In this document: positions 32,598-64,000 of the stretch, piece by piece
Position numbering within the stretch: position 1 is the first letter of the stretch
Layout of the letters: each line of letters starts with the position of its first letter
Source: a phage
NCBI GenBank assembly: GCA_032691205.1
Contig: GCA_032691205.1_4541.1
Strand: one strand, 5' to 3'
DNA length: 64,000 nucleotides
Position numbers and translations under genes: made by a program
Notes under the pieces: generated by a model
Database searches by the model: none
The model's input: the letters and a program-made list of their open reading frames with translations, nothing else
Told to the model about the DNA's origin: nothing

Positions 32598-32613
32598 GCC
32601 TTTTTCTAAATTT

Positions 32614-33176: not shown

Positions 33177-33196
33177 AATATTTACCTTTTTGTATG

Positions 33197-33256
33197 GTGG
33201 GGGAACTATTCCCCGCCTGATGTAATACAGTTTAACAGGTCCGGTTATGGTGTCAA
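33197..33256 (-). promoter_or_regulatory. PeSL-like cassette (hairpin gggggaactattcccc)
   Basis: -35 tgtcaa at 33251-33256. Confidence 0.55.
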
Positions 33257-33262
33257 CCACTT

Positions 33263-33448
33263 TTAAAGATATTTTATACTGATAACGTTTTCCGGTTTAA
33301 CCTTGTTGTGATGTGCATCAACATAGATCAAACCATCGTCAGAAAAGCCCAGGATCACGCCCTGCGCAATAAAACCGTATTCGTCACGGTAACGCACGGC
33401 TATTTTTAACGTTGCGTTGTAGGCTGTTTTAAGCTCGCTTAAAGTCAT
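33263..33448 (-). CDS. hypothetical protein (61 aa)
   Basis: ORF track. Confidence 0.5.
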   Translation of the reverse strand: MTLSELKTAYNATLKIAVRYRDEYGFIAQGVILGFSDDGLIYVDAHHNKVKPENVISIKYL

Positions 33449-33465
33449 CTTTGTTTATCCTCTAC

Positions 33466-33496
33466 ATGTAAAAAGAAAGGGCGCTTGGTGCGCCCC
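33466..33496 (-). terminator. rho-independent terminator (minus strand)
   Basis: gggcgcttggtgcgccc hairpin; U tract on minus strand. Confidence 0.6.
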
Positions 33497-33504
33497 TTAT
33501 TATG

Positions 33505-33651
33505 TTAATCCTCTAAATCCATCCAATTATATTTGTCACTCTTCCCGCGCTTTGTTTTATTGCGCTTGTCGCCTTTGCGGATCACTTCCTCGTTCCAGGC
33601 CTTGCGGATCTTGGAAGATTGAATTTTTTCTGCGCGATTAGATGTATTCAT
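33505..33651 (-). CDS. small basic protein (48 aa), not in ORF track
   Basis: Own translation MNTSNRAEKIQSSKIRKAWNEEVIRKGDKRNKTKRGK... Confidence 0.4.
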   Translation of the reverse strand: MNTSNRAEKIQSSKIRKAWNEEVIRKGDKRNKTKRGKSDKYNWMDLED

Positions 33652-33671
33652 TTTGTTTCCTCTTCATATGA

Positions 33672-33724
33672 GCGGCACCATTGCCGCTATATTGTTAATT
33701 TAAGCTGTTTTGTAAAATTGTCAA
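33672..33724 (-). promoter_or_regulatory. PeSL-like cassette (hairpin gcggcaccattgccgc)
   Basis: -35 tgtcaa at 33719-33724. Confidence 0.55.
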
Positions 33725-33730
33725 GGTTTA

Positions 33731-34084
33731 TCATTCATAAGAGCAAGCAAGGATCACGCCTGCAATATAAAGCCAATAATTTTCCCTTTCTCGTTGGATT
33801 TTATCATCGCTGCTATTCTCTTTAATGTATCCCCAGGATGTTAACAAGCGATCAATTTCCCAATATTCGAAAGCGATATTGATATCTGATGGCAAACCTT
33901 GTAACCATGATGCAAGTGCTTTAACAATACTATAATTAAAACGTGATTGGTTATCAGGGTACCAGTACTCGGAATTAAAACGGCGCATCAATTCCGCGAT
34001 CTTCTCTTTTTCGGTTGTAATACCGTAATCATTAAAATCGATAGCGGCAAGTATGTACTCTTTAATTGCATTTTGTGCTTTCAT
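33731..34084 (-). CDS. hypothetical protein (117 aa)
   Basis: ORF track. Confidence 0.55.
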   Translation of the reverse strand: MKAQNAIKEYILAAIDFNDYGITTEKEKIAELMRRFNSEYWYPDNQSRFNYSIVKALASWLQGLPSDINIAFEYWEIDRLLTSWGYIKENSSDDKIQRERENYWLYIAGVILACSYE

Positions 34085-34103
34085 GGTCTTTCTCTCTTTT
34101 TGA

Positions 34104-34160
34104 GCGGGAACTATTCCCGCCCTACGTGTAACAGTTTACTAAAAATTAAATCGGTGTCAA
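34104..34160 (-). promoter_or_regulatory. PeSL-like cassette (hairpin gcgggaactattcccgc)
   Basis: -35 tgtcaa at 34155-34160. Confidence 0.6.
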
Positions 34161-34163
34161 GCT

Positions 34164-34385
34164 TTATTTTGTTACTACCATTTGGTACCCTGTTTCAATG
34201 TTAGTAAATACTGTTATTCCGTCCTGGCGTTCACTCATTAGCATACAAGGCGCTAACATCCTTTCTACTGCCTTGCACTCATTGTAAACGGCGGTTATGT
34301 CTCCTGCGGCCTTGTCTTCTGTGGTGAATGTATCGTTTACGTAAACCTGACCAGCGACAACGGCGACAATAGCGAAAGTGATCAT
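34164..34385 (-). CDS. hypothetical protein (73 aa)
   Basis: ORF track; begins ATGATCACTTT like the next ORF. Confidence 0.5.
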   Translation of the reverse strand: MITFAIVAVVAGQVYVNDTFTTEDKAAGDITAVYNECKAVERMLAPCMLMSERQDGITVFTNIETGYQMVVTK

Positions 34386-34459
34386 GATGTTTCCTTGTTA
34401 GTAGTGGTTTCTCTTCTCTATAGCGCCCATTATAAGGCGCTATAACGAAAAGTCAACGA

Positions 34460-34627
34460 TTATTTTTTAAGGCTTAAAGTACCTAACTTGTCAGCATGAC
34501 GCAGACCAGGGAAGATCCATTTTCCTGATTCATCTTTTACAGGGGCTTTAAGCGTAGCGCCCAGGTTGGCGGCGTTAACTTTACGGGCAACGTTGCGAGC
34601 GGCTTCACGGGTAGTAAAAGTGATCAT
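34460..34627 (-). CDS. small protein (55 aa), not in ORF track
   Basis: Own translation MITFTTREAARNVARKVNAANLGATLKAPVK... Confidence 0.4.
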   Translation of the reverse strand: MITFTTREAARNVARKVNAANLGATLKAPVKDESGKWIFPGLRHADKLGTLSLKK

Positions 34628-34651
34628 GATGTTTTCCTCTTCTCTTTGTTA

Positions 34652-34713
34652 GGCGGTGGACCATTCCGCCGCCTTGATGTAATACAGTTTACTTTATTTT
34701 TGCAGTATTGCAA
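34652..34713 (-). promoter_or_regulatory. PeSL-like cassette (hairpin ggcggtggaccattccgccgcc; -35 TTGCAA)
   Basis: -35 at 34708-34713. Confidence 0.55.
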
Positions 34714-34718
34714 GCGTT

Positions 34719-34931
34719 TTATGAAATAATCGTCAAAGTAAAATTGTAATCACCTGATTGGTACAATACTTTATCACCGAACGTTCCAACACGTTTAACA
34801 TTGCAATATATACCCATAACACTTTTTACATCTTTGATATTCTTCACGCCTGTAATATCTTTATTAAAATGATCGTGATCAGAAAATAAAACTTGACTTG
34901 CATTTTTTAACAGTGTGCGGATATTAGCCAT
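34719..34931 (-). CDS. hypothetical protein (70 aa)
   Basis: ORF track. Confidence 0.5.
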   Translation of the reverse strand: MANIRTLLKNASQVLFSDHDHFNKDITGVKNIKDVKSVMGIYCNVKRVGTFGDKVLYQSGDYNFTLTIIS

Positions 34932-34956
34932 CGTGATAATCTCTCTTCTGTTGTGA

Positions 34957-35012
34957 GCGGCACTATTGCCGCCCTACGTAATACAGTTTACTCTTTTTCT
35001 TTCCCGTGTCAA
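34957..35012 (-). promoter_or_regulatory. PeSL-like cassette (hairpin gcggcactattgccgcc)
   Basis: -35 tgtcaa at 35007-35012. Confidence 0.6.
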
Positions 35013-35021
35013 CAATCTTTT

Positions 35022-35249
35022 TCAGATTAATTCATCCAGGCATAACAGGCGATCAACGTTGAGATCGGTCAGGCTGATGGTTGGCACCTGGTAGGATTCG
35101 ATGTACTCGACGCTTGCATATTCCCCAAAATTAGCAATAGCCCACTTATTCAAGATCTCACATACATCATTAATCTTTTTGTTTGTTACAACTGCAATAA
35201 CCTGGGAAGTGCCAACGGTGCCGGATACGCGAACAATATTGATAGCCAT
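35022..35249 (-). CDS. hypothetical protein (75 aa)
   Basis: ORF track. Confidence 0.5.
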   Translation of the reverse strand: MAINIVRVSGTVGTSQVIAVVTNKKINDVCEILNKWAIANFGEYASVEYIESYQVPTISLTDLNVDRLLCLDELI

Positions 35250-35270
35250 AATCTTTAATCTCTCTGTTGT

Positions 35271-35330
35271 TGGCGGGAAACCACTTCCCGCCCTATGTGA
35301 TACATCTTACACTAATTTTAAACGTTGTCA
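35271..35330 (-). promoter_or_regulatory. PeSL-like cassette (hairpin ggcgggaaaccacttcccgcc)
   Basis: -35 tgtcaa at 35325-35330. Confidence 0.6.
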
Positions 35331-35340
35331 ACTGTTTTTA

Positions 35341-35580
35341 TTACATTCCAACCATCGCGGCGCGGATCGCAGTTTTACTATACTTAAAGCCGTCTGGCGT
35401 TGTAGTGATTCCATCCTGTTTCAAACGGTAGCACATTAAATCAGCCGCCTGATCTTTATTACCGCACTCATTGATCAATCCCAATGCAAACCGATACAAT
35501 CCCTCATCGTTATTAATCCACAGGCTTACATTCCAATGAGTTTTGTTTTTGTGACCGTTGTACATTTTAGATTTAGCCAT
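35341..35580 (-). CDS. hypothetical protein (79 aa)
   Basis: ORF track. Confidence 0.5.
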   Translation of the reverse strand: MAKSKMYNGHKNKTHWNVSLWINNDEGLYRFALGLINECGNKDQAADLMCYRLKQDGITTTPDGFKYSKTAIRAAMVGM

Positions 35581-35604
35581 GATTTTTCTCTCTTTTTCAG
35601 TGAG

Positions 35605-35663
35605 GCGGGAAGTGTTCCCGCTCTCTATGTAATACAGTTTACTCTTTTTATTCGTGCTGTCAA
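35605..35663 (-). promoter_or_regulatory. PeSL-like cassette (hairpin gcgggaagtgttcccgc)
   Basis: -35 tgtcaa at 35658-35663. Confidence 0.6.
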
Positions 35664-35669
35664 TGCTTT

Positions 35670-36023
35670 TTATAAATCTTTTTTACGTTTTACATCGCTT
35701 GCATGACTGTATACAGCGATCCCATTATCACGACAAAAACGGGTAAGGTATGATCCGCGTGAAAACTCTTTCCCTTCCAGGTCAACAACCTTGCTAAATT
35801 CTTCCAGGGCAACGGTATCAAAATGATCACCATAACCATATTGAAACGGCACGTTAACAACTTCAATCAATTTACCGCCGATCTCAACGTCCACGCTTAA
35901 AGAAAAATATGTGTTACCGTAGGACTGTTGAAACCAGCGACGGGCGCTAATGTGAACGGCTTCAATCTCACCAATTTTAAATTGAGTGTTACCCAGGATC
36001 GCAACGTTGATATTTTTAGCCAT
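35670..36023 (-). CDS. hypothetical protein (117 aa)
   Basis: ORF track. Confidence 0.55.
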   Translation of the reverse strand: MAKNINVAILGNTQFKIGEIEAVHISARRWFQQSYGNTYFSLSVDVEIGGKLIEVVNVPFQYGYGDHFDTVALEEFSKVVDLEGKEFSRGSYLTRFCRDNGIAVYSHASDVKRKKDL

Positions 36024-36048
36024 GATTTTTTCTCTCTTTTTGGTTAGT

Positions 36049-36100
36049 GGGAAGTGTTCCCGATAAAAGTTATTATGCTTATACTATCGTTTTTTGTCAA
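36049..36100 (-). promoter_or_regulatory. PeSL-like cassette (short hairpin gggaagtgttccc)
   Basis: -35 tgtcaa at 36095-36100. Confidence 0.5.
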
Positions 36101-36119
36101 TAGTATAAGACTAAAACTT

Positions 36120-36299
36120 TTAACGATAATCGTCGTAGGCTTTATTAACCTGGCGAATATAACATTCGAAAGCGAGATCAATAGAATCATATTCCCGCAC
36201 ATAATCCCCGTAAGAAACTACATACACACCTTTTTGATCCTCAAACGTCATGATGATAGAATCCAGGCCGATGATTTCAGTTTTAGCGATGATAGTCAT
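36120..36299 (-). CDS. small protein (59 aa), not in ORF track
   Basis: Own translation MTIIAKTEIIGLDSIIMTFEDQKGVYVVSYG... Confidence 0.45.
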   Translation of the reverse strand: MTIIAKTEIIGLDSIIMTFEDQKGVYVVSYGDYVREYDSIDLAFECYIRQVNKAYDDYR

Positions 36300-36320
36300 A
36301 ATAATAACCTTTTTATTGTT

Positions 36321-36377
36321 GGCGGCACCATTGCCGCCCTACGTGATAAACTATACCAGAATTTTAAACAGTGTCAA
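36321..36377 (-). promoter_or_regulatory. PeSL-like cassette (hairpin ggcggcaccattgccgcc)
   Basis: -35 tgtcaa at 36372-36377; -10 TATAGT. Confidence 0.6.
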
Positions 36378-36387
36378 ACGTTTTTTC

Positions 36388-36633
36388 TTAGTTTGCGAAA
36401 TATGGCGCGGCGGCTGATGCCGTTAATCTCCAAGTGATTTGGCTATCGATCAAGTATTCTTCATTCTTGATCCGCACGGTATCAATCGAGAAGTTACTGA
36501 AAGGCTTGCTCTTGATTTTACGAACAACCGTTACACGACGGTTATTTTTCATCTCTTTTAACTGAATCCAGGCGTAACCTTTTTCATTGACAAATATTTC
36601 ATTGTGATTGGTGATAGATGATAAGTGTTTCAT
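36388..36633 (-). CDS. hypothetical protein (81 aa)
   Basis: ORF track. Confidence 0.5.
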   Translation of the reverse strand: MKHLSSITNHNEIFVNEKGYAWIQLKEMKNNRRVTVVRKIKSKPFSNFSIDTVRIKNEEYLIDSQITWRLTASAAAPYFAN

Positions 36634-36654
36634 GATTTGTTTCTCTTCTGTTTT

Positions 36655-36714
36655 GAGCGGTGGACCATTCCGCCGCCCTATGTGTTACATCTTACTACTT
36701 TTTTAAACATTGTC
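36655..36714 (-). promoter_or_regulatory. PeSL-like cassette (hairpin gcggtggaccattccgccgc)
   Basis: -35 tgtcaa at 36709-36714. Confidence 0.6.
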
Positions 36715-36724
36715 AAGGATATTT

Positions 36725-37006
36725 TTAACTATATGATCCACATCGTTCGCAGTAGTGATCATCGTCGTCATCTGCTACCTGGCTGATAAAATGATCTACC
36801 TTTGCTTTCAAATTATTATAATTGCTTTCTACTTCCTGTAGTCGTCGTTGGTAGTATTCCAGGGCTTGCACATAGGCCATTTGTTCGGTTTTAGCTTGCA
36901 CAGCTAAATTCATGCCGCGCGTTTCATCGTATAACCAATAACCATCATTACATTCACTAATAGATAGTGTAGGGCTTAGTTTTTCGTGACGGATAACCTT
37001 GCTCAT
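36725..37006 (-). CDS. hypothetical protein (93 aa)
   Basis: ORF track; C-terminal CERCGS. Confidence 0.55.
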   Translation of the reverse strand: MSKVIRHEKLSPTLSISECNDGYWLYDETRGMNLAVQAKTEQMAYVQALEYYQRRLQEVESNYNNLKAKVDHFISQVADDDDDHYCERCGSYS

Positions 37007-37016
37007 GGTGTGCCCC

Positions 37017-37124
37017 TTACTTCAAAATGATTGTTGTGATAACTGCTACGGTGATCCAAAATGGAACGGCTAGAATGATAGCGTTAATCGTTCCAACCGT
37101 CAAACTATTTCCTTTATTAATCAT
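37017..37124 (-). CDS. small membrane peptide (35 aa), not in ORF track
   Basis: Own translation MINKGNSLTVGTINAIILAVPFWITVAVITTIILK; RBS AAGAGG. Confidence 0.4.
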   Translation of the reverse strand: MINKGNSLTVGTINAIILAVPFWITVAVITTIILK

Positions 37125-37153
37125 TGTAAGCCTCTTGCATAATTTCACTATGA

Positions 37154-37210
37154 GCGGCACCATTGCCGCCCTACGTGGTAAATATTATGCCAGTGGCGGC
37201 GATATGTCAA
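37154..37210 (-). promoter_or_regulatory. PeSL-like cassette (hairpin gcggcaccattgccgcc)
   Basis: -35 tgtcaa at 37205-37210 overlaps stop of upstream gene. Confidence 0.6.
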
Positions 37211-37773
37211 AGACTATTTTCAAAGTTTTCTAGTGCGATCCTTTTTTCTTCCTCTGTCGGCTGATAATCAGGAAAAGCATCAACACACAACAACGGCGGG
37301 ATCTCTTCGTACTCTTCCTCTTCCGTTGTCTCCTCGTCTTCCTCCTGGGCTATGGCTGCAATTTTGGCTAATTTTCTTTCAGCTTGAATCAATTTACCAT
37401 CAAGTACGTTTTTTGCCATGTTGTAAGCGGTCCAGGTGATGCGCTTACTTTCCAGGGCCTGATCGAGCGCCGCTATCTTGCTGGGGTATTCATCCAGGAC
37501 ACGAAAAGCCGGATCAACTTTGTACAAAGGATTATCTTTCGCGCCGTCGCTCGCATCTTCCGCACTGGATAAATCAGCGTTACCATTTGCCAGCCAGCCA
37601 GGGCGCACATAACGCGCTTTTACGTTGCCGTTACTACGTGCTAATCTGTTACCTATTTGCTCACCGCTATATCCCGTGGATTCATCGATAAGATGATCGG
37701 GAATGATGCGCGGATCATCTGCTTCATGTTTTACCCAAGACTGGATCACATATTCGCGGCCCATATTAACCAC
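37207..37773 (-). CDS. hypothetical protein (188 aa), acidic C-terminus
   Basis: ORF track. Confidence 0.6.
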   Translation of the reverse strand: MVNMGREYVIQSWVKHEADDPRIIPDHLIDESTGYSGEQIGNRLARSNGNVKARYVRPGWLANGNADLSSAEDASDGAKDNPLYKVDPAFRVLDEYPSKIAALDQALESKRITWTAYNMAKNVLDGKLIQAERKLAKIAAIAQEEDEETTEEEEYEEIPPLLCVDAFPDYQPTEEEKRIALENFENSL

Positions 37774-38023
37774 CTTTTTTCAACAATTGGCATACTTTAA
37801 AAAGACTTGCTGAATCCTTGCAAGGGTAGAAAGATGTACGATAATCACGTACGCCAACCTTGCGGATCTCGATGTTCTCGCATGTTGTTTGATCAAAGAT
37901 ATTTATTTCATCACGCCCCCTTATATAAACATAGTGGGGATGTATTAACGCATATTTTGCTAATCTGTAAAAAGCGTTATCTTTGAACGCGATCACGTGA
38001 CCTTTTAATTTGATGTAAAACAT
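37766..38023 (-). CDS. hypothetical protein (85 aa)
   Basis: ORF track. Confidence 0.5.
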   Translation of the reverse strand: MFYIKLKGHVIAFKDNAFYRLAKYALIHPHYVYIRGRDEINIFDQTTCENIEIRKVGVRDYRTSFYPCKDSASLFKVCQLLKKGG

Positions 38024-38041
38024 TCTACCACCTTACAAATA

Positions 38042-38096
38042 GCGGGAACTATTCCCGCTTTATGTAACATATTAACAAATTATTCGTTAATGTCAA
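38042..38096 (-). promoter_or_regulatory. PeSL-like cassette (hairpin gcgggaactattcccgc)
   Basis: -35 tgtcaa at 38091-38096. Confidence 0.6.
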
Positions 38097-38099
38097 GCC

Positions 38100-38372
38100 T
38101 TAAAGCAAAAACGCTACATCTTGCGCTTTTAGTGTAGTATCAACCATTTTCGGGCTTTTATAATCAACAAAGCGCGCGGTTTTTTCAATAGCGAAACCGA
38201 GATAATCTTGCTTGTTGAAATTACATTCTTTCTTAAATGTTTCCCGTGCAATGGCAATCGCTGCGTCCAGGGATAAACGCCCGTCAATATTGATATTAGC
38301 GAAAGATCCGCCACCGCTCATAGGTTTACCAGTTGTGCCAGCTACGATCATTGTTGCGCTATATGATGCCAT
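38100..38372 (-). CDS. hypothetical protein (90 aa)
   Basis: ORF track. Confidence 0.5.
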   Translation of the reverse strand: MASYSATMIVAGTTGKPMSGGGSFANINIDGRLSLDAAIAIARETFKKECNFNKQDYLGFAIEKTARFVDYKSPKMVDTTLKAQDVAFLL

Positions 38373-38407
38373 GATGATAATCTCTCTTCTGTTACGAGCG
38401 GGAAACC

Positions 38408-38466
38408 ACTTCCCGCCCTATGTGATACATCTTATCAGGTTGTTGTTTGTTGTCAATACTTTTTAT
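38408..38466 (-). promoter_or_regulatory. PeSL-like cassette (hairpin gcgggaaaccacttcccgc)
   Basis: -35 tgtcaa at 38461-38466 overlaps stop of upstream gene. Confidence 0.6.
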
Positions 38467-38660
38467 TCTATCCCTGCAATTTGATTAACGCGCTTGCATT
38501 TTGTAGCGTGCTGGTCTTCTGTAATGACTCCCATTTCTAACAGGGAATCAATGAAAGATAAAACCGTTTCATGATCATCCTGGGGATGACTGAACTCAGT
38601 AAAACCGTTTACTATTACGTTGATTTGTCCAGCTTTCGCCACAATGTGCAATGTTGCCAT
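38463..38660 (-). CDS. hypothetical protein (65 aa)
   Basis: Track ORF trimmed to ATG 38660 (RBS GGAG) because the cassette hairpin lies inside the track ORF. Confidence 0.45.
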   Translation of the reverse strand: MATLHIVAKAGQINVIVNGFTEFSHPQDDHETVLSFIDSLLEMGVITEDQHATKCKRVNQIAGIE

Positions 38661-38681
38661 GATCTTAACTCCAAATAGTGA

Positions 38682-38738
38682 GCGGCACCATTGCCGCGCT
38701 ACGTGGTAAATATTATGCCGCCACCTGGCGAACGTCAA
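38682..38738 (-). promoter_or_regulatory. PeSL-like cassette (hairpin gcggcaccattgccgc; TTGACG N17 TAATAT)
   Basis: -35 at 38733-38738. Confidence 0.6.
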
Positions 38739-38847
38739 CCACTTTTTCAATCTTTTTTATTTTCTTTTTGCTTGCTATATATAAAGGAAAGGGTTATCAT
38801 CTTTCTACCGCGCCAACCAGGGCGCACAACAAAGAAAGGGCGACACC

Positions 38848-39114
38848 ATGACAAATACTACATTACATCTTATGCACTCATTGGGCTGGCAAGGCGGCAC
38901 GGTGCACCAGGTAGCAAGCGCAACGGGCTTAAAGGTTGAAACCGTTCTCAACCTATCAGATTATAAGGTCGAGGATAGTTATCAATTACAAAGTTACACG
39001 GGCGGTTTTACCTGGGCGCGTGAAGGTGGGAAAGAAAGCAATATACCACATTGGGGAAAAGGTGATATTCATTTTTGGCTAGGTGTCCTGACCTGGCAAG
39101 AAAACAAAAAATAA
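38848..39114 (+). CDS. hypothetical protein (88 aa)
   Basis: ORF track; RBS AAGGG; isolated plus-strand ORF between minus blocks. Confidence 0.4.
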   Translation: MTNTTLHLMHSLGWQGGTVHQVASATGLKVETVLNLSDYKVEDSYQLQSYTGGFTWAREGGKESNIPHWGKGDIHFWLGVLTWQENKK

Positions 39115-39116
39115 TC

Positions 39117-39145
39117 TTGACAAGCCCAGGGATAGGGCTTATACT
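39117..39145 (+). promoter_or_regulatory. consensus sigma70 promoter TTGACA N17 TATACT
   Basis: Exact -35 hexamer; 17-nt spacer; -10 TATACT. Confidence 0.6.
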
Positions 39146-39151
39146 GTTTTA

Positions 39152-39370
39152 CATACAGAAGAGGAAGCGCCACCCCACGGCGTAAAGGCGGGGCTAACAT
39201 ACCAGGGGCACTGGTTGGAAGGTTGATCGCCGGTAGGCTGGGCGCTATATATTTGTAAAGAAATGTAAAGATAAAATAATCGCTTGCTTTCCTGGCTGGA
39301 TCTGTTATTCTTATTACATGGCGAGGGGACACGGGAGCGCGAGACAAACACCGCCCCTGCGCGTCATTCT
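39152..39370 (+). ncRNA. candidate structured small RNA (GC-rich island downstream of promoter)
   Basis: GC-rich self-complementary segments (gcgccacc..ggcgc; gaggggac..cgcccctgcgcg) with no convincing ORF. Confidence 0.3.
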
Positions 39371-39394
39371 CTAAATGAGAATGATTATCATTTA
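39365..39394. promoter_or_regulatory. palindrome CATTCTC-taaa-TGAGAATG plus Fur-box-like AATGATTATCATT
   Basis: 16 of 19 positions match the Fur-box consensus as I recall it. Confidence 0.3.
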
Positions 39395-39434
39395 CCTTAT
39401 CAAATAAGAATAAATCTCATTTATAAACTTAAAT

Positions 39435-39478
39435 GCGAATCATTATCATTTGCATTTCCATATGAGAACTCTTCTCAT
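39435..39478. promoter_or_regulatory. Fur-box-like site and ATGAGAA-ctc-TTCTCAT palindrome
   Basis: gcgaatcattatcatttgc ... atgagaactcttctcat. Confidence 0.3.
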
Positions 39479-39501
39479 TCTCACCTGCATAAAAATTTTT
39501 G

Positions 39502-39544
39502 TAAACTTTAAATTTTGCTTTTGTACTTTCATTTTTGTAAAAGC
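39502..39544. repeat. direct repeat copy 1 (about 43 bp)
   Basis: taaactttaaattttgcttttgtactttcatttttgtaaaagc. Confidence 0.55.
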
Positions 39545-39639
39545 AAAAAAACTTTAAATACTGTGGGCGCGCAAAATTTTTAAAATTTTCCTTGACTTTT
39601 GAGTTTTGTTTTGTATCTAACATTTTAAGATAATTTTCC

Positions 39640-39679
39640 TAAACTTTAAATTTTGGTTTTCAACTTTCACTTTTGTAAA
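39640..39679. repeat. direct repeat copy 2
   Basis: taaactttaaattttggttttcaactttcacttttgtaaa. Confidence 0.55.
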
Positions 39680-39921
39680 TTCTTAAAAAGTTTAAATAAT
39701 TTGAGGGATTTTTGAGATAATGGATAGTGGGAATTTGATATAACCTTTAATCTTATTAGTAGACCTTCAGGAACCCACCTAGATCGAATCCTAGTGATGC
39801 AAACTGAAAAAGATAAGTGTTTGTATAGGACAAAATAACAGGCTCTCTACGGTGCTGTAGGAGCCTTATTTCTGTGCTACAAAGTGACACCTTTGTTCTA
39901 AAAATGAAAAAAGTTAAAATA

Positions 39922-46729: not shown

Positions 46730-46757
46730 ATTGACATACTTTTTAATCTTGTTAAGA
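46730..46757 (+). promoter_or_regulatory. sigma70-like promoter TTGACA N16 TAAGAT in divergent region
   Basis: Upstream of the plus-strand block starting at 46789. Confidence 0.55.
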
Positions 46758-46788
46758 TCAACTCCTACCAAACAAAAGGAGAAAACAA

Positions 46789-56995: not shown

Positions 56996-57004
56996 TAAAA
57001 CTTA

Positions 57005-57028
57005 AAGGCGCACTTTGCGCCTTTTTTG
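57005..57028 (+). terminator. rho-independent terminator
   Basis: aaggcgcactttgcgcctt hairpin followed by T6. Confidence 0.7.
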
Positions 57029-57098: not shown

Positions 57099-57971
57099 AT
57101 GAAAGATTTGTACCAAGATGTTTTTTCTTTTTTAGATCGCACTTCAGAAACATACACTAGAGAGAATGCAAACAAACCTTCCCACCTTGTTAACACGCAC
57201 AGGGATCTCTTGGCGGGGATTTTAAGCAAACATATGGCAATGACACAGATACTGCCAAAAAACTTGTCAGAGTGGCATACAGAAGGTTTTGGACATATTC
57301 ACGACTTGGATTATCTGCTCTCTCCTCTTACAAACTGTTGTCTTGTTAATTATCAAGATATGTTAGAGAATGGTTTTAAGATCGGTGCTGCACAGATAGA
57401 AAAACCAAAATCTATTGGAGTAGCTACTACAGTGCTAACTCAAATCATCCAAGCTGTTGCCTCCAGTCAGTATGGAGGTCAGACGTGTGCTCACATTGAT
57501 AAAGGTCTTAGTCCTTATGTTGAAGCCAGTTTCCTTAAAAACATGGAGATAACCAAACGTCGCTACGGTTGTTATGCAAGGAAAGAAGCCCTAGAAATGA
57601 CCGAACAAGATGTATATGACGCTATGCAAACTCTCTTGTATCAGGTTAACACTTTAATGAGTGTTAATGGACAATCTCCTTTTATTACAATCAGTATGGG
57701 TCTGGATACCTCTGTTTTTGGCAGAATGATCACAGCTAACTATCTTAAAGTGCATAGTAACGGTCTAGGCAAAGATCATGTAACGCCTGTATTCCCTAAA
57801 GTTATTTTCTTTTTACAAGAAGGTGTTAACATGAAACCTAGTGATCCTAACTACGACCTTAAGCAACAAGCTTTGGCATGTTGTGCTGATCGTATTTATC
57901 CAGATTTTATTTCTGTTCCTTTGAACAAAGAAGTTACGGGATCAGCAGATGGTACCGTTACGAGTATGGGT
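57099..57971 (+). CDS. nrdD: anaerobic ribonucleoside-triphosphate reductase, exon 1
   Basis: NrdD-like N-terminal translation; exon ends at ...VTSMG (codon ggt ending in T) before the in-frame stop. Confidence 0.8.
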
Positions 57972-58740
57972 AAACTATAACTGCTCATGTAAAATCTGCC
58001 TAAACGGGGGAACTCTCAACGAGACAATCCCGTGCTAAACGTAACAGAACTCCCAACACAGAAGAAGGGGGTACTGATATGAGAAAACAAATTCGTGATT
58101 TTGAAGGGTATGAAATTGACGAGCTTGGAAATGTTTATTGTACCAGGTATAAGGATGAAAGAATCCTTCGCTCGTGGGAAGAAATAAACACAGGATACCA
58201 ACTTGTCAGAATACGTAAAAACAAGAAAACTGTTTGCTTTCGGGTGCACAGACTTGTAGCTGAAGCGTTTTTACCCAATCCAGACAATTTACCTTATGTG
58301 AAGCATAAAGGTGACAATAGGAAAGACAACAGTGTATACAATCTTGAGTGGGGATCTTGTCCAGACAACACGCAAGAGGGTTACGATAATAACTGTTATG
58401 CTTTCTATACAAGGTGTCACAGTGTAAAAGCTACTCATAAGGCTACTGGTGAAGTTTTTTACTTTAAAAGTCTGAGATGTTGTGCTGACGCTTTAGGGTT
58501 GGACAGAAAAAGAATATCTGCAATCTTAAAGCGAGGAGCACCAAATAATTATGATTATGAGTTCTGTTACGAAATGCCTAACGACTAGCTGTGATGAATG
58601 TAGCAGCGTAGGGTGTAAGCCTATGACACCCCAAATGGTAGACATGCTTTAAGCATGAAGATATAGTCTGATCTGCATGGTGACATGCAGCAGCACGTAA
58701 TGGTGCGGGAGCGGCCTTGCGAGCCACTTTGAACATAATG
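57972..58740 (+). mobile_element. group I intron in nrdD (boundaries inferred)
   Basis: Splits the conserved ...TSMG/CRSFL... junction; ends in G; contains an HNH endonuclease ORF. Confidence 0.6.
58079..58588 (+). CDS. intron-encoded HNH homing endonuclease
   Basis: YEIDELGNVY (NUMOD4-like) and HRLVAEAF..VKHKGDNRKDN..NLEW (HNH_3-like). Confidence 0.8.
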   Translation: MRKQIRDFEGYEIDELGNVYCTRYKDERILRSWEEINTGYQLVRIRKNKKTVCFRVHRLVAEAFLPNPDNLPYVKHKGDNRKDNSVYNLEWGSCPDNTQEGYDNNCYAFYTRCHSVKATHKATGEVFYFKSLRCCADALGLDRKRISAILKRGAPNNYDYEFCYEMPND

Positions 58741-59682
58741 TGTAGAAGTTTCTTGTCGTACTATGCCACCGAACAAGGAGAAAAATATGATGGACGATTC
58801 AACCTTGGAGTAGTTTCTATCAACTTGCCTCTGATTGCTGCGGAAGCGAGAAGTAAAGGAGAATCTTTCACCGATCTTCTTAATAAACATATGGAGATAG
58901 CCTACGATGCTCACATGTTACGTGTAAACCGTATCAGACATACCAAAGCATCGGAAAACCCTATTCTTTTCATGGAAGGGGCTTTAGCGCGTTTAAATGC
59001 CAACGATGAAATTGGTGCTTTGTTTGAAGGTGGTTATGCTTCTATTAGTATTGGTTATGTAGGTCTTGCCGAAGCTTTGGAAATCCTTTATCCAGAGGAA
59101 AAAGATAAAAAGGAACTAGGTAAAAACATTCTGCAACATATGAAAGATGTGTGTGCTGTGTTTAAAGAACGATCTAAGTTGGCATTTAGTCTTTATGGAA
59201 CTCCAGCAGAATCCTTGTGCTATAAATTTGCAACAGCTTTAAATGAAAAATATCCAGGTCTGGTAGAAAGAGACTATCTTACTAATTCTTTTCATCAACC
59301 TGTAGGGTTGGTAACAAATCCTTTTGAAAAATGGGATTATGAAGCAGGTTTTGCACAGATTAGCAATGGTGGTAACATAAGTTATGTCGAAACACCAAAC
59401 TTAAAGAATAACTTAGAAGCTTTGGAGACTTTAGTAGACTACGCTTATGAACATATTCACTATTTTGGTATTAATCAGCCCGTGGATCAATGCTTTAAGT
59501 GTGGTTTTCATGGAGAATTTAAGGCAACGGCTAAAGGGTTTGAGTGTCCTGATTGTGGCAACCATGAAGAAGAAACTATTTCTGTAGTTAGACGTGTATC
59601 AGGGTATCTTTCTGCCCCTAATTCACGGCCTTATAACAAAGGTAAAATGCAGGAAGTTTTGCAAAGGGAGAAACATCTTTGA
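58741..59682 (+). CDS. nrdD: anaerobic ribonucleoside-triphosphate reductase, exon 2
   Basis: C-terminal Cys cluster CFKCGFHG..CPDCG and glycyl-radical motif RVSGYL. Confidence 0.8.
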   Translation, partial: CRSFLSYYATEQGEKYDGRFNLGVVSINLPLIAAEARSKGESFTDLLNKHMEIAYDAHMLRVNRIRHTKASENPILFMEGALARLNANDEIGALFEGGYASISIGYVGLAEALEILYPEEKDKKELGKNILQHMKDVCAVFKERSKLAFSLYGTPAESLCYKFATALNEKYPGLVERDYLTNSFHQPVGLVTNPFEKWDYEAGFAQISNGGNISYVETPNLKNNLEALETLVDYAYEHIHYFGINQPVDQCFKCGFHGEFKATAKGFECPDCGNHEEETISVVRRVSGYLSAPNSRPYNKGKMQEVLQREKHL

Positions 59683-60149
59683 ATTTTGCAGGATATGAAC
59701 CTGTAGATCTTATTAATGGTGAGGGAGTTAGGTGCTCCCTCTGGGTTAGTGGTTGTAGCCACGGTTGTCGTGGCTGTTTTAACCAGAAAGCCTGGTCTTA
59801 TTCTTATGGGAAACCGTTCACTAACGAAAATGTAGAGCAAGTTTTAAAAGATTTGTCAAGACCATTTGTAAAAGGTTTAACAATTTTAGGAGGAGAACCA
59901 TTAGATCCGCAGAATATTTACAATGTTAAAAACCTTATAGAAAAGGTTAGAGACGTTTATGGGTCAAGCAAAGATATAATGGTGTATACAGGATATACTT
60001 TTGAGGAAGTGCCTTTGTATATTAAAAATCTTGTTGACATTATTGTAGACGGAAAGTATGAAATAAACAATCCAACCACAAAACCTTTCAGAGGGTCAGA
60101 TAATCAAAGATTATGGACCAAAACGGCAAGTGGTTGGCAATCAGATTAA
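59679..60149 (+). CDS. nrdG: anaerobic RNR activating protein (radical SAM)
   Basis: CSLWVSGCSHGCRGC motif; immediately downstream of nrdD. Confidence 0.8.
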   Translation: MNFAGYEPVDLINGEGVRCSLWVSGCSHGCRGCFNQKAWSYSYGKPFTNENVEQVLKDLSRPFVKGLTILGGEPLDPQNIYNVKNLIEKVRDVYGSSKDIMVYTGYTFEEVPLYIKNLVDIIVDGKYEINNPTTKPFRGSDNQRLWTKTASGWQSD

Positions 60150-60162
60150 CTTAGGAGGTTTC

Positions 60163-60354
60163 ATGGTTACATATTTTGCTGTAGGAGATAGAGTAGGGAC
60201 GGCAGGAGAACTTTTGAAGAACAGTGATCGGGACGTTAAGGACATTCTTGCAACCCTTGCGGATATTTTACAAAGAAAAGAGTTGCTTTCTGATCGAGAT
60301 GTTGCTAAATTACTTGATATCGGAGGAGATGAACTTCAAAGACTTCCATTTTAA
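60163..60354 (+). CDS. hypothetical protein (63 aa)
   Basis: Track ORF trimmed to ATG 60163 after AGGAGG. Confidence 0.45.
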   Translation: MVTYFAVGDRVGTAGELLKNSDRDVKDILATLADILQRKELLSDRDVAKLLDIGGDELQRLPF

Positions 60355-60369
60355 GTGAGGAGATAAGTA

Positions 60370-60975
60370 ATGCAACATAGTGTAGTAGTCAATATGCCGA
60401 ATAGTGGGGATAAATCTTTTGGTGTCCCTGCTAAAAAAGTGTGGAAAGCCCATTTTCATCTTACTTTATCTAACGTTAGTTCTGAAGAGTTGATGAAAGC
60501 AGCTAAGATTATTGGTGCCAAATGCACAACAATTGATTTACATCGGGATACAAAGTCTCAACGTGATCGTATGTTAACAAAGTATCAAAGCGATCTCGAC
60601 ACTACTTTAATGTTGCAGTGTGTAGAAAAACTTGAGAATGCAGGTTTCAATGTTGTTCGTTACAAACTGGAACGAATGTTTAAACATGTTGCCTGTGTTC
60701 TTTTCATGGATCTAAGTAAAGAAAATTATGGAGAAGTTCACATTAAGACTTCAGCAAGTGATCCCGAAGTAGAAACAAACTTCTTCCGTATTTCTTCTAA
60801 TGCTGAAGAAATTGATTACCGATTTTATAATGCTCGCTTATATTCCGCAGAAGATAAGTTGCGTTTCAATGAAGCGTATGATATGCTCTTGAACAGTGGG
60901 ATACAGATAAAAGGCTACCACATAGAACAAGTTGTGGTAGACAGTAACTTAAATCTTGATGCGTGGTGGGCCTAG
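60370..60975 (+). CDS. hypothetical protein (201 aa); one HxTx motif
   Basis: RBS GAGGAG; FHLTL resembles a 2H-phosphoesterase motif but no clear second copy. Confidence 0.55.
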   Translation: MQHSVVVNMPNSGDKSFGVPAKKVWKAHFHLTLSNVSSEELMKAAKIIGAKCTTIDLHRDTKSQRDRMLTKYQSDLDTTLMLQCVEKLENAGFNVVRYKLERMFKHVACVLFMDLSKENYGEVHIKTSASDPEVETNFFRISSNAEEIDYRFYNARLYSAEDKLRFNEAYDMLLNSGIQIKGYHIEQVVVDSNLNLDAWWA

Positions 60976-60976
60976 T

Positions 60977-61633
60977 ATGACAATAAAACATATTTCTTTT
61001 GATGTATGGAATACTCTTATTTCTGCCAATCAAAACTATGCAGATGCACGTACGCACACTATTGCTACATATGGTAGAATGTCTGAACGTGCGGCAAAAG
61101 AAGCATATAAAGATGCCAAAGAAATTATGGATAATGCTGCACTAAATGGGTGTGCAGAAGGTGTAGCATATGCATGGAATATGTTGGGAAGAAAGATAGG
61201 TTTAACCCCTGTAGAATCTGCACAAATGCGTTTTGAGTGTGAGCAATGGTTTCTTAAATTTCCTCCACATATCGCTTTAGATTTGCCAGTTTGTTTGCTA
61301 TACTTGTCTGGTAAATATGATCTTAGTATTAAAAGCAATACTAATTTTATATCTGGGGATATTTTGCGTCGTGCTTGTATGTTCGACAGTTGGAATTGTT
61401 TTGAATTTATGCATTTTTCAGACGAACATCTGTTATGTAAACCAGATCCTAGATTCTTTGTTAGGACCGCCACATATTCAAGCATTCCTTTGAAGGCTGA
61501 AGAGATTTTACATGTTGGGGACAGCGAAGAATTTGATGGTAAATGTGTTGACATAGGGATTAACTTCTGTCATATTAAGAACCCTAACGATTTACTAGAG
61601 AAACTTAAAAGAGGAGAAATTGTAAATGCGTAA
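60977..61633 (+). CDS. HAD-like hydrolase with non-canonical motif I
   Basis: FDVWNTL (second Asp replaced by Trp), KPDP, GDS. Confidence 0.55.
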   Translation: MTIKHISFDVWNTLISANQNYADARTHTIATYGRMSERAAKEAYKDAKEIMDNAALNGCAEGVAYAWNMLGRKIGLTPVESAQMRFECEQWFLKFPPHIALDLPVCLLYLSGKYDLSIKSNTNFISGDILRRACMFDSWNCFEFMHFSDEHLLCKPDPRFFVRTATYSSIPLKAEEILHVGDSEEFDGKCVDIGINFCHIKNPNDLLEKLKRGEIVNA

Positions 61634-62453
61634 TCAAACTCAAATTTTTGCAAATAAATTTGATGACCTGGAAACTGCTACTTTTGATATCAAAGACTAT
61701 TCAAAATTGAAATTTGGTTGTAACCAAGCTGCGCGTCGTATGGGTAAAGAATTGGCACTTCAGTTTTTTGCTCAAGTGGCAATGAAACATATTGGGGAAC
61801 AATTTGTTATCATCCCTTCTCCTTATAACCATGTGCACAATGCTGCAACAATGATGACAGATCATTTTATTAATTACTTTAATATGTTGCAAGCACAATA
61901 TGATCAAGGTCGTTCAGCAGAACTGGATATTATTCATCGTAAAGTTAGCTATATCAACGATTATGGTTTCTTGGATAAAGCTAGTCGTAAGAAACTTATT
62001 GATGGGGATACATTCTACTGCAACAAAGAATTCTGGGGTGATAAGAAGCTTGTGTTCATTGATGATGTAAATATCACCGGAACTCATGAAGACAAACTGA
62101 TTGAGATTCTTGATGAAAATCAAGTTAAAAATGATGTTTACTTCTTGTATTTTGCAAAATATGAAGGTAATCAAGCAGATACTGAAGCTAAACTGAATTT
62201 TAACTACATCAATACACCAGAAGCGTTTGTTAAAATGATTAATGAAGAACGTGATGCACAGTGTCTTGTTCGTCCTATTAAGTATCTTATGGGCCAAAAT
62301 CACGAAGACTTCAAAATCATTCTTAGCCAATTGCCACACTACTATGTAGAGCAACTTTTCTTCGGATGTTTGGGAGAAGGTTACAACCGAATTTCAAAGT
62401 ATGCTGAAAACTTTGAATTCTTGGATCGTTACACAAAACAACACATTCTGTAA
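61626..62453 (+). CDS. type I phosphoribosyltransferase-fold protein (putative)
   Basis: KKLVFIDDVNITGTHEDKL resembles the PRPP-binding loop. Confidence 0.55.
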   Translation: MRNQTQIFANKFDDLETATFDIKDYSKLKFGCNQAARRMGKELALQFFAQVAMKHIGEQFVIIPSPYNHVHNAATMMTDHFINYFNMLQAQYDQGRSAELDIIHRKVSYINDYGFLDKASRKKLIDGDTFYCNKEFWGDKKLVFIDDVNITGTHEDKLIEILDENQVKNDVYFLYFAKYEGNQADTEAKLNFNYINTPEAFVKMINEERDAQCLVRPIKYLMGQNHEDFKIILSQLPHYYVEQLFFGCLGEGYNRISKYAENFEFLDRYTKQHIL

Positions 62454-62466
62454 TAAGGAGCTAAAA

Positions 62467-62940
62467 ATGCTTAAAATGAAAACAGGTAATCTTATTGATG
62501 CCGCTAAAGCAGGTGAAGTAACTGTTATTGCTCATTGTTGCAATTGTATGTGTAATATGGGAGCAGGAATTGCTCCGCAAATTAAACGAGCATTCCCTTA
62601 TGCATATGCGGCAGATTTAGACACAATGGCTGGTGATCAAAGTAAGTTAGGTTCTTTTAGTTTAGGGGTGCCAGACGAACAATCAGACCCTTTGGTATAT
62701 AATCTATACGGGCAATACCGTTACGGATACAATGCTAAAGGTCGTCAGTTGGACTATGATGCACTTTACGATGCACTAATAGCTATGGCTAATGATTTGC
62801 TTCTCCGTGACCAAAAATGTAAGATAGGTTTACCTATGATTGGAGCGGGACATGCCGGAGGTAATTGGGCTATCATCCAAGTGATGATTGAAGAAACTTT
62901 AGTAAAAACAGGTCACGATGTGACTATTTATAAACTTTAA
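62467..62940 (+). CDS. macro domain protein (ADP-ribose binding/processing)
   Basis: Start ATG 62467 after AAGGAG; VIAHCCNCMCNMGAGIA and GLPMIGAGHAGG. Confidence 0.7.
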   Translation: MLKMKTGNLIDAAKAGEVTVIAHCCNCMCNMGAGIAPQIKRAFPYAYAADLDTMAGDQSKLGSFSLGVPDEQSDPLVYNLYGQYRYGYNAKGRQLDYDALYDALIAMANDLLLRDQKCKIGLPMIGAGHAGGNWAIIQVMIEETLVKTGHDVTIYKL

Positions 62941-62952
62941 GAGGAGATTAGT

Positions 62953-63174
62953 ATGGGTGTTTTTGCAGGTATTGTTGCAGTGGTAAGCTTTTTTGTTATT
63001 GCTTTTATGCTTAGTTTGATTCCAGCTTGGTTACTGTTGCTGGCTTACAACTATGTTGCTGAAGTTATGGGTCATGCAGATATCACTGTCCCAGTAACCT
63101 TCTGGACCGTGGTTTGTGTTTCGTTTATTTTGGCGGTATTACGAGGAATCTTTTCCTCTCATTCAACAAAATAA
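62953..63174 (+). CDS. small membrane protein (73 aa, two TM)
   Basis: ORF track; RBS AAGAGGAG. Confidence 0.55.
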   Translation: MGVFAGIVAVVSFFVIAFMLSLIPAWLLLLAYNYVAEVMGHADITVPVTFWTVVCVSFILAVLRGIFSSHSTK

Positions 63175-63177
63175 GTG

Positions 63178-63236
63178 TTGACATAGTTCTTAAAAAGAGT
63201 AAGATATATCACATGAAGCGGGGAATAGTTCCCCGC
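63178..63236 (+). promoter_or_regulatory. PeSL-like cassette on plus strand: TTGACA N16 TAAGAT + stem-loop gcggggaatagttccccgc
   Basis: Hairpin 63218-63236 is the same family as the minus-strand cassettes (reverse complement of gcgggaactattcccgc type). Confidence 0.55.
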
Positions 63237-63252
63237 AAAGAGAGGAGAAAAG

Positions 63253-64000
63253 AATGCAACTCGGTTTCCCAATTATTGATGTAGTTGTTTTAGTTGGTAT
63301 TTTAGCATTGTCTATTGGTATCGATTTCTTTGGTCATAAAGAGAATAAAGAAATTGGAATTAAATCTGCTTTGCTTTGGTCTGTTTTTTGGATTGCTTTA
63401 GCTTTAGGGTATTACGCATTCATTTGGGTAGAACATGGTAAAGAGTTTGCCGCGCTTTTCCTAAGTGGCTATGTGTTGGAAAAGAGTCTTTCTGTAGATA
63501 ACCTAATGGTGTTCATGGCAATTTTTGCAAGCTTTGGAATTAAGAGCACACATCTCCAACATAAGATTCTACTTTGGGGGATTGCAGGAGCCATTGTCTT
63601 CCGAGGTATTTTTGTTGCAGCAGGGACCGCTTTGTTTAACCTTCATTGGTCGGTCCAAGTGTTGTTCGGTTTGATTGTAGCTTGGTCTGCCGTGGCTATC
63701 ATCAAAGGTGGTGACGAAGAAGAGGATATTGATTACTCTAAACATTGGGCTGTTCGTTTAGTAGGTAAAGTTCTGCCTGTGCACAATGCACTGGATGGTG
63801 AAAAGTTCATCACCATTAAGAATGGTATTAAATATGCAACTCCTGCTCTTCTTTGTGTGTTTGTTATTGAGCTTACAGATATTGTCTTCTCTTTTGATTC
63901 AGTTCCGGCTGTGATCGGTGTGACACAAGAACCTCTGCTAGTTTATTCTGCAATGCTGATGGCTGTTCTTGGTTTACGTGCACTTTTCTTTGTGTTAAGT
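63253..64000 (+). CDS. TerC-family integral membrane protein (partial, runs off window end)
   Basis: Own translation from ATG 63253 (RBS AGAGGAGAA): multiple TM helices; not in ORF track because no stop. Confidence 0.6.

Follow-up and report, generated by a model that had tools for sequence, protein, structure and literature searches.

In the 64,000-nucleotide phage sequence analysed here (contig GCA_032691205.1_4541.1 of GenBank assembly GCA_032691205.1; this whole stretch is called the window), a plus-strand gene for a TerC-family membrane protein runs off the right end and is preceded by a short cassette consisting of a promoter, a GC-rich hairpin and a Shine-Dalgarno (SD) sequence. We conclude that this locus probably marks the start of a self-contained transcription unit whose product is a phage-encoded TerC and whose cassette has its relatives in a minus-strand array of small early genes.

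The -35 hexamer of the promoter, TTGACA (63178-63183), is preceded by an A-rich stretch and begins 3 nt past the stop codon of an upstream gene for a 73-aa protein. A 16-nt spacer separates it from the -10 hexamer TAAGAT (63200-63205), which is followed by ATATCACATGAA and then by the 8-bp, GC-rich leader hairpin GCGGGGAA-TAG-TTCCCCGC (63218-63236). On the 3' side of the hairpin comes an A/G-rich tail without a U-tract, AAAGAG-AGGAG-AAAAGA, and then the ATG at 63254, from which the frame stays open as far as the window end. The SD sequence AGGAG (63243-63247) lies 6 nt before the ATG and carries a ribosome-binding-site annotation in Escherichia phage ESCO13, a close relative. Promoter, stem-loop and open reading frame (ORF) are thus present as an earlier reading of the letters (the sequence-only reading) had described them. 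A relaxed sigma-70 scan of 56-64 kb returned 19 sites against 22.7 +/- 5.9 expected, which is not above chance, so that a consensus match alone is little proof of a promoter. For the exact arrangement TTGACA-N15-18-TAAGAT, the window has five occurrences where 0.08 would be expected, a count reached in none of 100 shuffles, and the leader hairpin has a folding energy of -14.6 kcal/mol (z = -4.08), which was equalled by none of 200 shuffles. In IMG/VR, the exact promoter-leader motif was found on five contigs only, of 97-153 kb, sizes typical of this phage group. The TTGACA-N16-TAAGAT of TerC also recurs on the plus strand at 46731-46758, where it heads a long plus-strand gene block with a leader that has no hairpin.

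The TerC cassette is one of 21 copies in the genome and the sole one outside the array, whose 20 promoter-plus-hairpin cassettes lie on the minus strand at 29135-38748 (29.1-38.7 kb), each heading one or a few small ORFs in a hyperplastic early-gene region. The array copies are laid out as an A-rich stretch, TTGACA, N16(-17), TAnnnT, (G/T)TA(T/C)CAC(A/G)TAG, a GCGG...CCGC hairpin, an A/G-rich SD tail and ATG, and promoter-like sites are enriched in the array region (54 versus 27.6 +/- 6.1 expected). The 16-nt spacer is found in 17 of the 21 cassettes and in all four cassettes of TerC orthologues. Family profiles were built from the array copies with the TerC copy excluded. With nhmmer, the profile of the 36 nt after the -10 matched 63207-63238 on the plus strand (E = 4.4e-5), and the full-cassette profile matched the TerC copy at E = 3e-10 with no other match outside the array, which bears out the earlier claim that the TerC stem-loop is of the same family as those of the minus-strand array. 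The geometry of the TerC copy also resembles that of the array: 12 nt from the -10 to the stem start versus 7-11 nt (core stems), a folding energy of -14.6 versus a median of -15.0, and 17 nt from the stem end to the ATG versus a median of 17.5.

Two side observations concern the array and its flank. At 31454-31490, the perfect palindromic hairpin AGGCGGGATTAATCCCGCCT is of the cassette type (GCGG...CCGC base) with no recognizable promoter upstream, and could represent a decayed 'half' cassette of the kind described for the PeSLs, the promoter-and-stem-loop elements of T4-like phages discussed below. Between the array and the next minus-strand genes lies a stretch of about 1.2 kb with almost no long ORF (38750-39920). 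It contains three to four palindromes spaced 29 nt apart (39372-39480; for example AAATGAGAATGATTATCATTT), which resemble the E. coli Fur box, AT-rich direct repeats (39494-39703) and a plus-strand consensus promoter (39117-39145) followed by GC-rich hairpins. Rfam and tRNA searches of the stretch gave no match; it could be an origin or a regulatory hub.

Over 62400-64000 the window is 99.9% identical to ESCO13 and 98-99.9% identical to about 50 other phAPEC8-like myoviruses with genomes of ~150 kb. By this similarity it is assigned to Phapecoctavirus (subfamily Stephanstirmvirinae), as a lytic E. coli phage of the phAPEC8 group, and a T4-type phage was rejected as its source because of the near-identity to phAPEC8-like Phapecoctavirus. 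Nine positions differ between the window and ESCO13 across 60000-64000, none of them inside the cassette or TerC, so that ESCO13 serves to extend the sequence past the window end. A further relative, phage nieznany, is 98.9% identical to the window in the TerC region.

The window contains codons 1-249 of TerC (63254-64000), and these 249 residues are identical to those of the 324-aa ESCO13 protein. The extended ORF matches Pfam TerC (PF03741; E = 3e-40, 138.3 bits versus a cut-off of 27.8) and the NCBIfam model of the TerC/Alx metal-homeostasis subfamily (TIGR03718; 318.6 bits versus 246.4), falls below the cut-offs of the YkoY and YjbE subfamily models, and belongs to PHROG 7180 in the category 'moron, auxiliary metabolic gene and host takeover' ('moron/AMG'). 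A 19-residue Kyte-Doolittle scan gave nine hydrophobic peaks; for TerC of closely related phages, 99.7-100% identical to the window TerC, DeepTMHMM has given nine transmembrane segments (PMC10698182). Five acidic residues, E76, D82, E206, D209 and D215 (codons starting at 63479, 63497, 63869, 63878 and 63896), align with E86, D92, E213, D216 and D222 of Alx, all required for Mn2+ export by the E. coli protein (PMC10197570); none of the five varies when the protein is aligned with Salmonella Alx (YgjT) and two more phage TerCs. The TerC assignment is settled by the profile matches together with these conserved residues, and the TerC/Alx-like, multi-pass identity claimed from the truncated frame holds for the full-length protein. 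With 48-50% identity to plasmid TerC versus 32% to Salmonella Alx, the protein is classed as a TerC of the ter-operon type. It would act as an inner-membrane divalent-metal (Mn2+-type) exporter and form the membrane arm of a phage Ter (tellurite-resistance-type) system. The gene is annotated as TerC in the phAPEC8 record, and a literature search found no paper linking phAPEC8 to TerC.

TerC also appears to have its own 3' end. In ESCO13, the intrinsic terminator AGCCTCC-TTCG-GGAGGCT followed by ATTTTAT lies 7 nt past the TerC stop codon, just beyond the window (7836-7853 of the extracted ESCO13 locus, L001), and it is also found, with altered stems, in the loci of Justusliebigvirus alia and Klebsiella phage phi1_175008. 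TerC is therefore bounded on both sides, and is predicted to be a monocistronic promoter-gene-terminator unit embedded in a co-directional block.

Next, we considered what the hairpin does. The sequence-only reading had called the cassette PeSL-type, PeSLs being described as composites of a sigma-70-like promoter and a stem-loop that stops transcripts arriving from upstream (PMC2839356, PMC4122927). In all cassettes of the present family the stem starts 7-12 nt past the -10. With the start site assumed at the usual 6-8 nt past the -10, this places the hairpin inside the cassette's own transcript, the TerC hairpin being predicted to begin ~5-7 nt into it. The 8 nt after each of the 21 stems hold 0-3 T, the tails being A/G-rich, and a terminator scan of the sense strand called none of the 21 hairpins. 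Since the hairpin lies in its own transcript and has neither a U-tract nor a terminator call, a canonical terminator role is unlikely; termination was set aside as the main explanation, every copy lacking a U-tract, and an antisense terminator was considered as well, the opposite-strand tails being likewise not T-rich. As a 5' leader element, its likelier role, the hairpin may protect the mRNA 5' end or otherwise act in the leader, possibly as an element that is recognized, with a free A-rich SD region downstream. An Mn2+ riboswitch of the yybP-ykoY type, which is typical of the bacterial 'R_switched' members of the TerC family without being needed for membership, was also rejected, the ~42-nt leader being too short for an Mn2+ aptamer. 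Rfam gave no match in the TerC leader at E up to 10 and none in the window at the gathering score; the Salmonella alx leader, used as a control, likewise gave no match at the gathering score, so the rejection rests on leader length.

Conservation of the hairpin was examined within the array and between TerC orthologues. The array stems are paired at 94.6% of cells versus 87.7 +/- 1.8 in shuffles (the observed value was reached in 0 of 500), pairing falls to 40-59% when the partners are slid, and at one stem pair eight copies have CG where seven have GC. Because the cassette copies share descent, these statistics are supportive but short of decisive. RNAalifold on a MAFFT alignment of 16 cassettes returned no structure, as the arms were misaligned owing to differing loop lengths. 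The orthologous TerC leaders are stronger evidence for the hairpin than the array pairing. In four lineages they keep the -35 (TTGACA or TTGACT), the 16-nt spacing, the -10 and, in the same position, a hairpin with a predicted energy of -14 to -15 kcal/mol, while the stems differ. The hairpin of the window and ESCO13 is shared by tuntematon, and the corresponding hairpins are GCGGGGA-GTGGT-TCCCCGC in phiWec186, GCGGAGGA-TTG-TCCTCCGC in Justusliebigvirus alia and AGAGGGG-GATAGGC-TCCCTCT in phi1_175008. The stems of the window and alia are two compensatory pair changes apart.

The gene lies among other Ter genes, which belong to a class of system with resistance to tellurite, phages or colicins as its phenotype. 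In co-directional order over ~10 kb, the block encodes a HAD-like protein, PRTase_3, a Macro-domain protein, the 73-aa membrane protein, TerC, an SprT-like protein, TelA, a TerF-type vWA protein and TerD. On the plus strand of the window, the HAD-like hydrolase (60977-61633) matches PF00702 weakly (E = 0.0012, 19.7 bits, below the cut-off of 26.4) and phrog_14393 ('hydrolase'); PRTase_3 (61626-62453; PF15610, 6.1e-42) is a ComF-like phosphoribosyltransferase (PRTase) of a Ter-associated family; the Macro-domain protein (62467-62940), annotated 'phosphatase', matches PF01661 (23 bits versus a cut-off of 22) and phrog_335 (1e-55); and the 73-aa protein (62953-63174; phrog_16065), with two hydrophobic segments, stands beside TerC in the other genus, Justusliebigvirus, too. 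Just past the window end in ESCO13, Pfam matches identify TelA (3.2e-33) and the vWA-TerF-like protein (1.6e-37), with the SprT-like match between TerC and TelA and a TerD domain (3.2e-28) ~7 kb downstream. TerB, TerZ/A and ATP-grasp proteins were not detected in the phage Ter set. Ter component classes, including those of Ter systems in some phages, have been defined as PRTase plus HAD, TerD and/or TerB, TerC, TelA and TerF-type vWA, and a role against superinfecting phages has been proposed for the phage systems (PMC7824862). Besides TerC, PRTase plus HAD (HAD weakly), TerD, TelA and TerF-type vWA are present here, and TerC is, by gene content, a component of a co-directional phage Ter system conserved across the subfamily. 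TerC homologues were found in 177 of 50,697 phage records, ~130 of them from Stephanstirmvirinae. The earlier description of TerC as uncommon phage cargo thus stands for its overall rarity and fails for its setting, the gene being part of a conserved Ter system and not an isolated acquisition.

Among the recognizable Ter genes, only TerC has an early-type cassette. A 12/12 consensus promoter with an extended -10 (TTGACA-N16-tgTATAAT) and without a cassette hairpin was observed ~6.3 kb past the window end in ESCO13 (L001, 13507-13534), inside a small ORF and upstream of an 89-aa ORF and TerD; it may drive the TerD end of the Ter set separately. TerC proteins 50-55% identical to that of the window are encoded by unrelated phages of 76-90 kb, the Grimontviridae Cronobacter phage GAP52 and Proteus phage 3H10_20, where the gene adjoins genes annotated as TerD/TerZ-like, stress response protein, PRPP synthetase, NAMPT and phosphoribosyltransferase, indicating that phages assembled Ter sets more than once.

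The block ahead of the Ter genes includes, between nrdG and the HAD-like gene, a 201-aa ORF (60370-60975) without a Pfam match and in a PHROG with no function assigned. A 386-aa ATPase and small ORFs occupy its position in alia, so this block is mosaic as well. At 57004-57024, inside the plus-strand gene block, a 9-bp hairpin (AAAGGCGCA-CTT-TGCGCCTTT) has T-runs on either strand and resembles a terminator whichever way it is transcribed. The anaerobic ribonucleotide reductase gene nrdD is a single 605-aa coding sequence in ESCO13 and the window (57868-59682) and is annotated as two coding sequences in nieznany (locus L002, 31718-34303), separated by a ~740-nt gap with a 169-aa ORF, which suggests an intron or a homing-endonuclease insertion.

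Comparison of the array between the window and nieznany uncovered several segments confined to one phage, and two junctions were resolved to the base. One chimeric cassette of nieznany joins the promoter of the window cassette at 32104 to the SD sequence and gene of the cassette at 30499, with the crossover within the shared hairpin TAGGGCGGCAATGGTGCCGC; nieznany lacks window positions 30511-32049 (1.54 kb, at least two cassette-headed units). In the other, the promoter at 35012 is joined to the leader at 34713 with the loss of 268 nt, the crossover falling within the shared AAAGTAAACTGTATTAC (the -10 and the initial transcribed stretch). The shared stretches at the two crossovers are 20 nt and 17 nt. 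These chimeras show that recombination inside cassettes deletes or inserts early genes, as reported for PeSLs, and cassette-mediated shuffling in the array is well supported. The short identical stretches of the cassettes would serve as patches for homologous recombination.

The situation at TerC is different. In Phapecoctavirus, Justusliebigvirus and the Klebsiella-phage lineage of phi1_175008, cassette and TerC stand in the same syntenic position, so the pair is old and a recent delivery by shuffling is unsupported. The earlier proposal that one shuffling mechanism delivers genes on both strands is therefore upheld for the array and not, as a recent event, for TerC. Exchange does occur around the gene. 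In alia, an additional 83-aa ORF lies exactly between the 73-aa gene and the TerC cassette. In tuntematon, a TerC allele like that of alia (Justusliebigvirus-like) stands between flanks like those of the window, its left switch point at ~63317-63340 and its right end ~55 nt before the stop codon. The region from the hairpin through the first ~25 codons is 83-90% identical between the genera, versus 52-80% for the rest of TerC, and the left switch falls in this best-conserved segment. The tuntematon event is best described as an allelic exchange by homologous recombination beside the cassette, not as insertion of a cassette-flanked module.

Based on these data, we propose that host RNA polymerase would fire the TerC promoter right after infection, together with the early array, and that early TerC could plausibly exclude superinfecting phages or buffer envelope or metal stress. 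Several points weigh against the picture of an early, self-contained unit with a protective leader hairpin. A first covariance model with a single stem class was too sequence-specific and left the TerC copy unmatched at E up to 1; a second one, seeded on eight same-geometry copies and then iterated, matched it marginally (15.4 bits, E = 0.26), the TerC copy being the top site outside the array in a search of the window and the remaining 86 kb of the ESCO13 genome. The 5-7 nt predicted to be unpaired at the 5' end exceed what usually suits 5'-hairpin protection in E. coli, for which ~4 nt or fewer are optimal. TerC of Klebsiella phage FBKp34 has neither promoter nor hairpin upstream, so TerC can do without the cassette. 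Across the arrays of both genera, hardly any variation is seen in the stem base GCGG/CCGC and the 5' flank CAC(R)TAG, a pattern that hints at recognition of the sequence itself and not just at stability. The literature search found no transcriptome for Stephanstirmvirinae; the start site, the early timing and the stabilization by the hairpin are what we infer from the layout. Finally, the superinfection-exclusion idea itself stems from comparative genomics (PMC7824862).

The near-invariant motifs lend themselves to a tentative alternative, in which a phage- or host-encoded factor recognizes the hairpin, at the RNA or DNA level, and co-regulates the 20 array units and TerC as an 'immediate-early regulon', stability being secondary; such regulation could work by timed shut-off, processing or translational control. 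Not only the stem base but also the (G/T)TA(T/C)CAC(A/G)TAG flank and AAT(A/G)G-type loops recur in nearly all array copies of Phapecoctavirus and Justusliebigvirus, although the proteins of the two genera have diverged by ~30%, and the restriction of the exact promoter-leader motif to this phage group in IMG/VR fits as well. On the other hand, the phi1_175008 TerC stem has no GCGG, the alia TerC loop differs, common descent plus gene conversion between cassettes can explain the similarity of the copies, and no candidate binding protein was identified. It is unlikely that the cassette is a genuine PeSL in the sense of Arbiol and Comeau, whose hairpin terminates or attenuates transcription arriving from the nrd-HAD-PRTase-Macro genes, leaving TerC to its own promoter and insulated on both sides. 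PeSL hairpins cut lacZ expression as strongly as rrnB T1, and one subclass lies downstream of the -10 (PMC2839356). TerC has the look of an insulated gene, its terminator following directly on the stop codon, and the array with its internal crossovers resembles a PeSL-rich hyperplastic region. However, a terminator downstream of its own predicted start would stop the cassette's own transcripts, all 21 stems lack a U-tract, have A/G-rich tails and escape the sense-strand terminator scan, and the source phage is not T4-like. What survives of the PeSL-type label is therefore the composite motif, the clustering and the crossovers; membership is not established for a hairpin sitting in a transcribed leader without a U-tract.

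Equally to be weighed is whether TerC was brought here as a cassette-flanked mobile module by the process that shuffles the array, which we regard as doubtful. The cassette-mediated indels of the array are real, the 83-aa ORF of alia was inserted exactly between the upstream gene and the cassette, the left switch of the tuntematon allele lies in the conserved patch that begins in the cassette's 3' part, and FBKp34, whose TerC lacks the cassette, has different upstream genes. But several lineages have cassette and TerC at one and the same place, downstream of nrdD/G-HAD-PRTase-Macro, the nearby Ter genes to which TerC is linked in function are without a cassette, there is a single cassette and no flanking pair, and the tuntematon event is explained by ordinary homologous recombination. 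Least probable is a fortuitous promoter match, with TerC transcribed only within a long plus-strand operon. Relaxed matches are not enriched at 56-64 kb and no terminator separates the upstream gene from TerC; against this stand the intergenic position, the exact -35, the hexamers and 16-nt spacing kept in four lineages while the spacer sequence diverges, and the profile match to 20 other cassettes. We thus retain the self-contained TerC unit with a leader hairpin as the preferred reading.

A bolder, and clearly speculative, form of these ideas is that the cassette defines an immediate-early regulon of Stephanstirmvirinae, whose hairpin would be a dedicated cis-regulatory RNA, recognized by a factor of the phage or host and at the same time serving as a patch for recombination, with TerC as the sole functionally recognizable member outside the array. 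If so, TerC would be an immediate-early effector whose action in the first minutes of infection alters the membrane or metal state of the cell, for example by Mn2+ efflux or by assembly of a Ter complex that blocks superinfection or a metal-dependent host defence, and PeSL-style modular shuffling would extend beyond T4-like phages, with the stem-loop moved into the mRNA. The TerC gene and the phage Ter set were already known, while the cassette family and its shuffling role appear to be undescribed for this phage group; the literature search found no promoter-hairpin cassettes described in Phapecoctavirus or rV5. New here are a PeSL-like cassette family in a subfamily unrelated to T4, junctions resolved to the base that show early genes being lost and gained through crossovers in cassettes, the shift in likely function from terminator to leader element that follows from a stem-loop in the mRNA leader, and the finding that TerC alone among recognizable Ter genes is wired to an early-type cassette and its own terminator. 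Should this early wiring be confirmed, it would give a practical way into the function and timing of phage Ter systems, and also a compact, portable promoter-leader module for phage engineering.

With the PeSLs of T4-like RB49/phi1, PST/T4 and nt-1/KVP40, the present cassettes share an intergenic A/T-rich stretch, a sigma-70-like promoter, a G/C stem-loop, an SD sequence and ATG, copies clustered among small variable ORFs, and crossovers inside cassettes that give indels between close relatives. PeSLs are further described as giving rise to encapsidated mini-circles. The PeSL stem-loop lies upstream of the promoter in PST and nt-1, and mostly between or overlapping the hexamers in RB49/phi1, with a minority class downstream of the -10 (PMC2839356, PMC4122927). 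In contrast, the hairpin here is always downstream of the -10, in the transcript and without a U-tract, which makes a terminator role doubtful; the spacer is mostly 16 nt versus 17; the source phage belongs to Stephanstirmvirinae and not to the T4-like myoviruses in which PeSLs were described; and the TerC copy is a plus-strand singleton in a conserved gene block. PeSLs thus seem a good analogy for recombination and an imperfect one for transcription, and 'PeSL-like' is a fair description.

The phage TerC shares the TIGR03718 subfamily and its 48-50% identity over the full length with TerC of plasmid and island terZABCDEF operons (IncHI2 R478-type), where TerC likewise co-occurs with TerD, TerF-type vWA and PRTase genes. 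In the one plasmid examined for this, the Enterobacter plasmid NZ_CP096189, TerC lies inside a terZABCDE operon beside PRTase and ATP-grasp genes. Different from these operons, the phage set is dispersed among ORFans, with Macro, SprT-like and TelA genes added, and its TerC, rather than sitting inside an operon, is equipped with a separate promoter and terminator. Alx (YgjT) of E. coli and Salmonella is an Mn2+ exporter controlled by a yybP-ykoY-type riboswitch (PMC10197570); the phage protein has in common with it the subfamily model, nine hydrophobic segments and the five required acidic residues at identical spacing, and differs in its 32% identity and in a ~42-nt leader with a simple hairpin of no Rfam family. 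Phage-encoded Ter genes have been reported in Acinetobacter jumbo phage ME3, Caulobacter jumbo phages and Klebsiella phage phiKp34, a relative in which terC, terF-vWA, terD and telA are already recorded (PMC7824862, PMC8386662). The set described here has the same PRTase plus HAD, TerD, TerC, TelA and TerF-type vWA components; unlike the jumbo-phage systems, it is carried by a 150-kb, non-jumbo coliphage, and a separate early-type TerC unit was not pointed out in the literature found.

Two familiar arrangements come closest to the unit itself, namely the 5'-terminal stabilizer hairpins of the ompA 5' untranslated region and the T7 phi10 leader, and the morons of lambdoid phages, which are promoter-gene-terminator units. 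Like the former, the TerC leader places a GC-rich hairpin close to the start of the mRNA, with an A-rich, unstructured SD region after it, although with ~5-7 nt predicted to be unpaired at the 5' end; like the latter, TerC is a single gene with its own promoter and terminator inside a co-directional block, but one that is conserved in the subfamily rather than sporadic.

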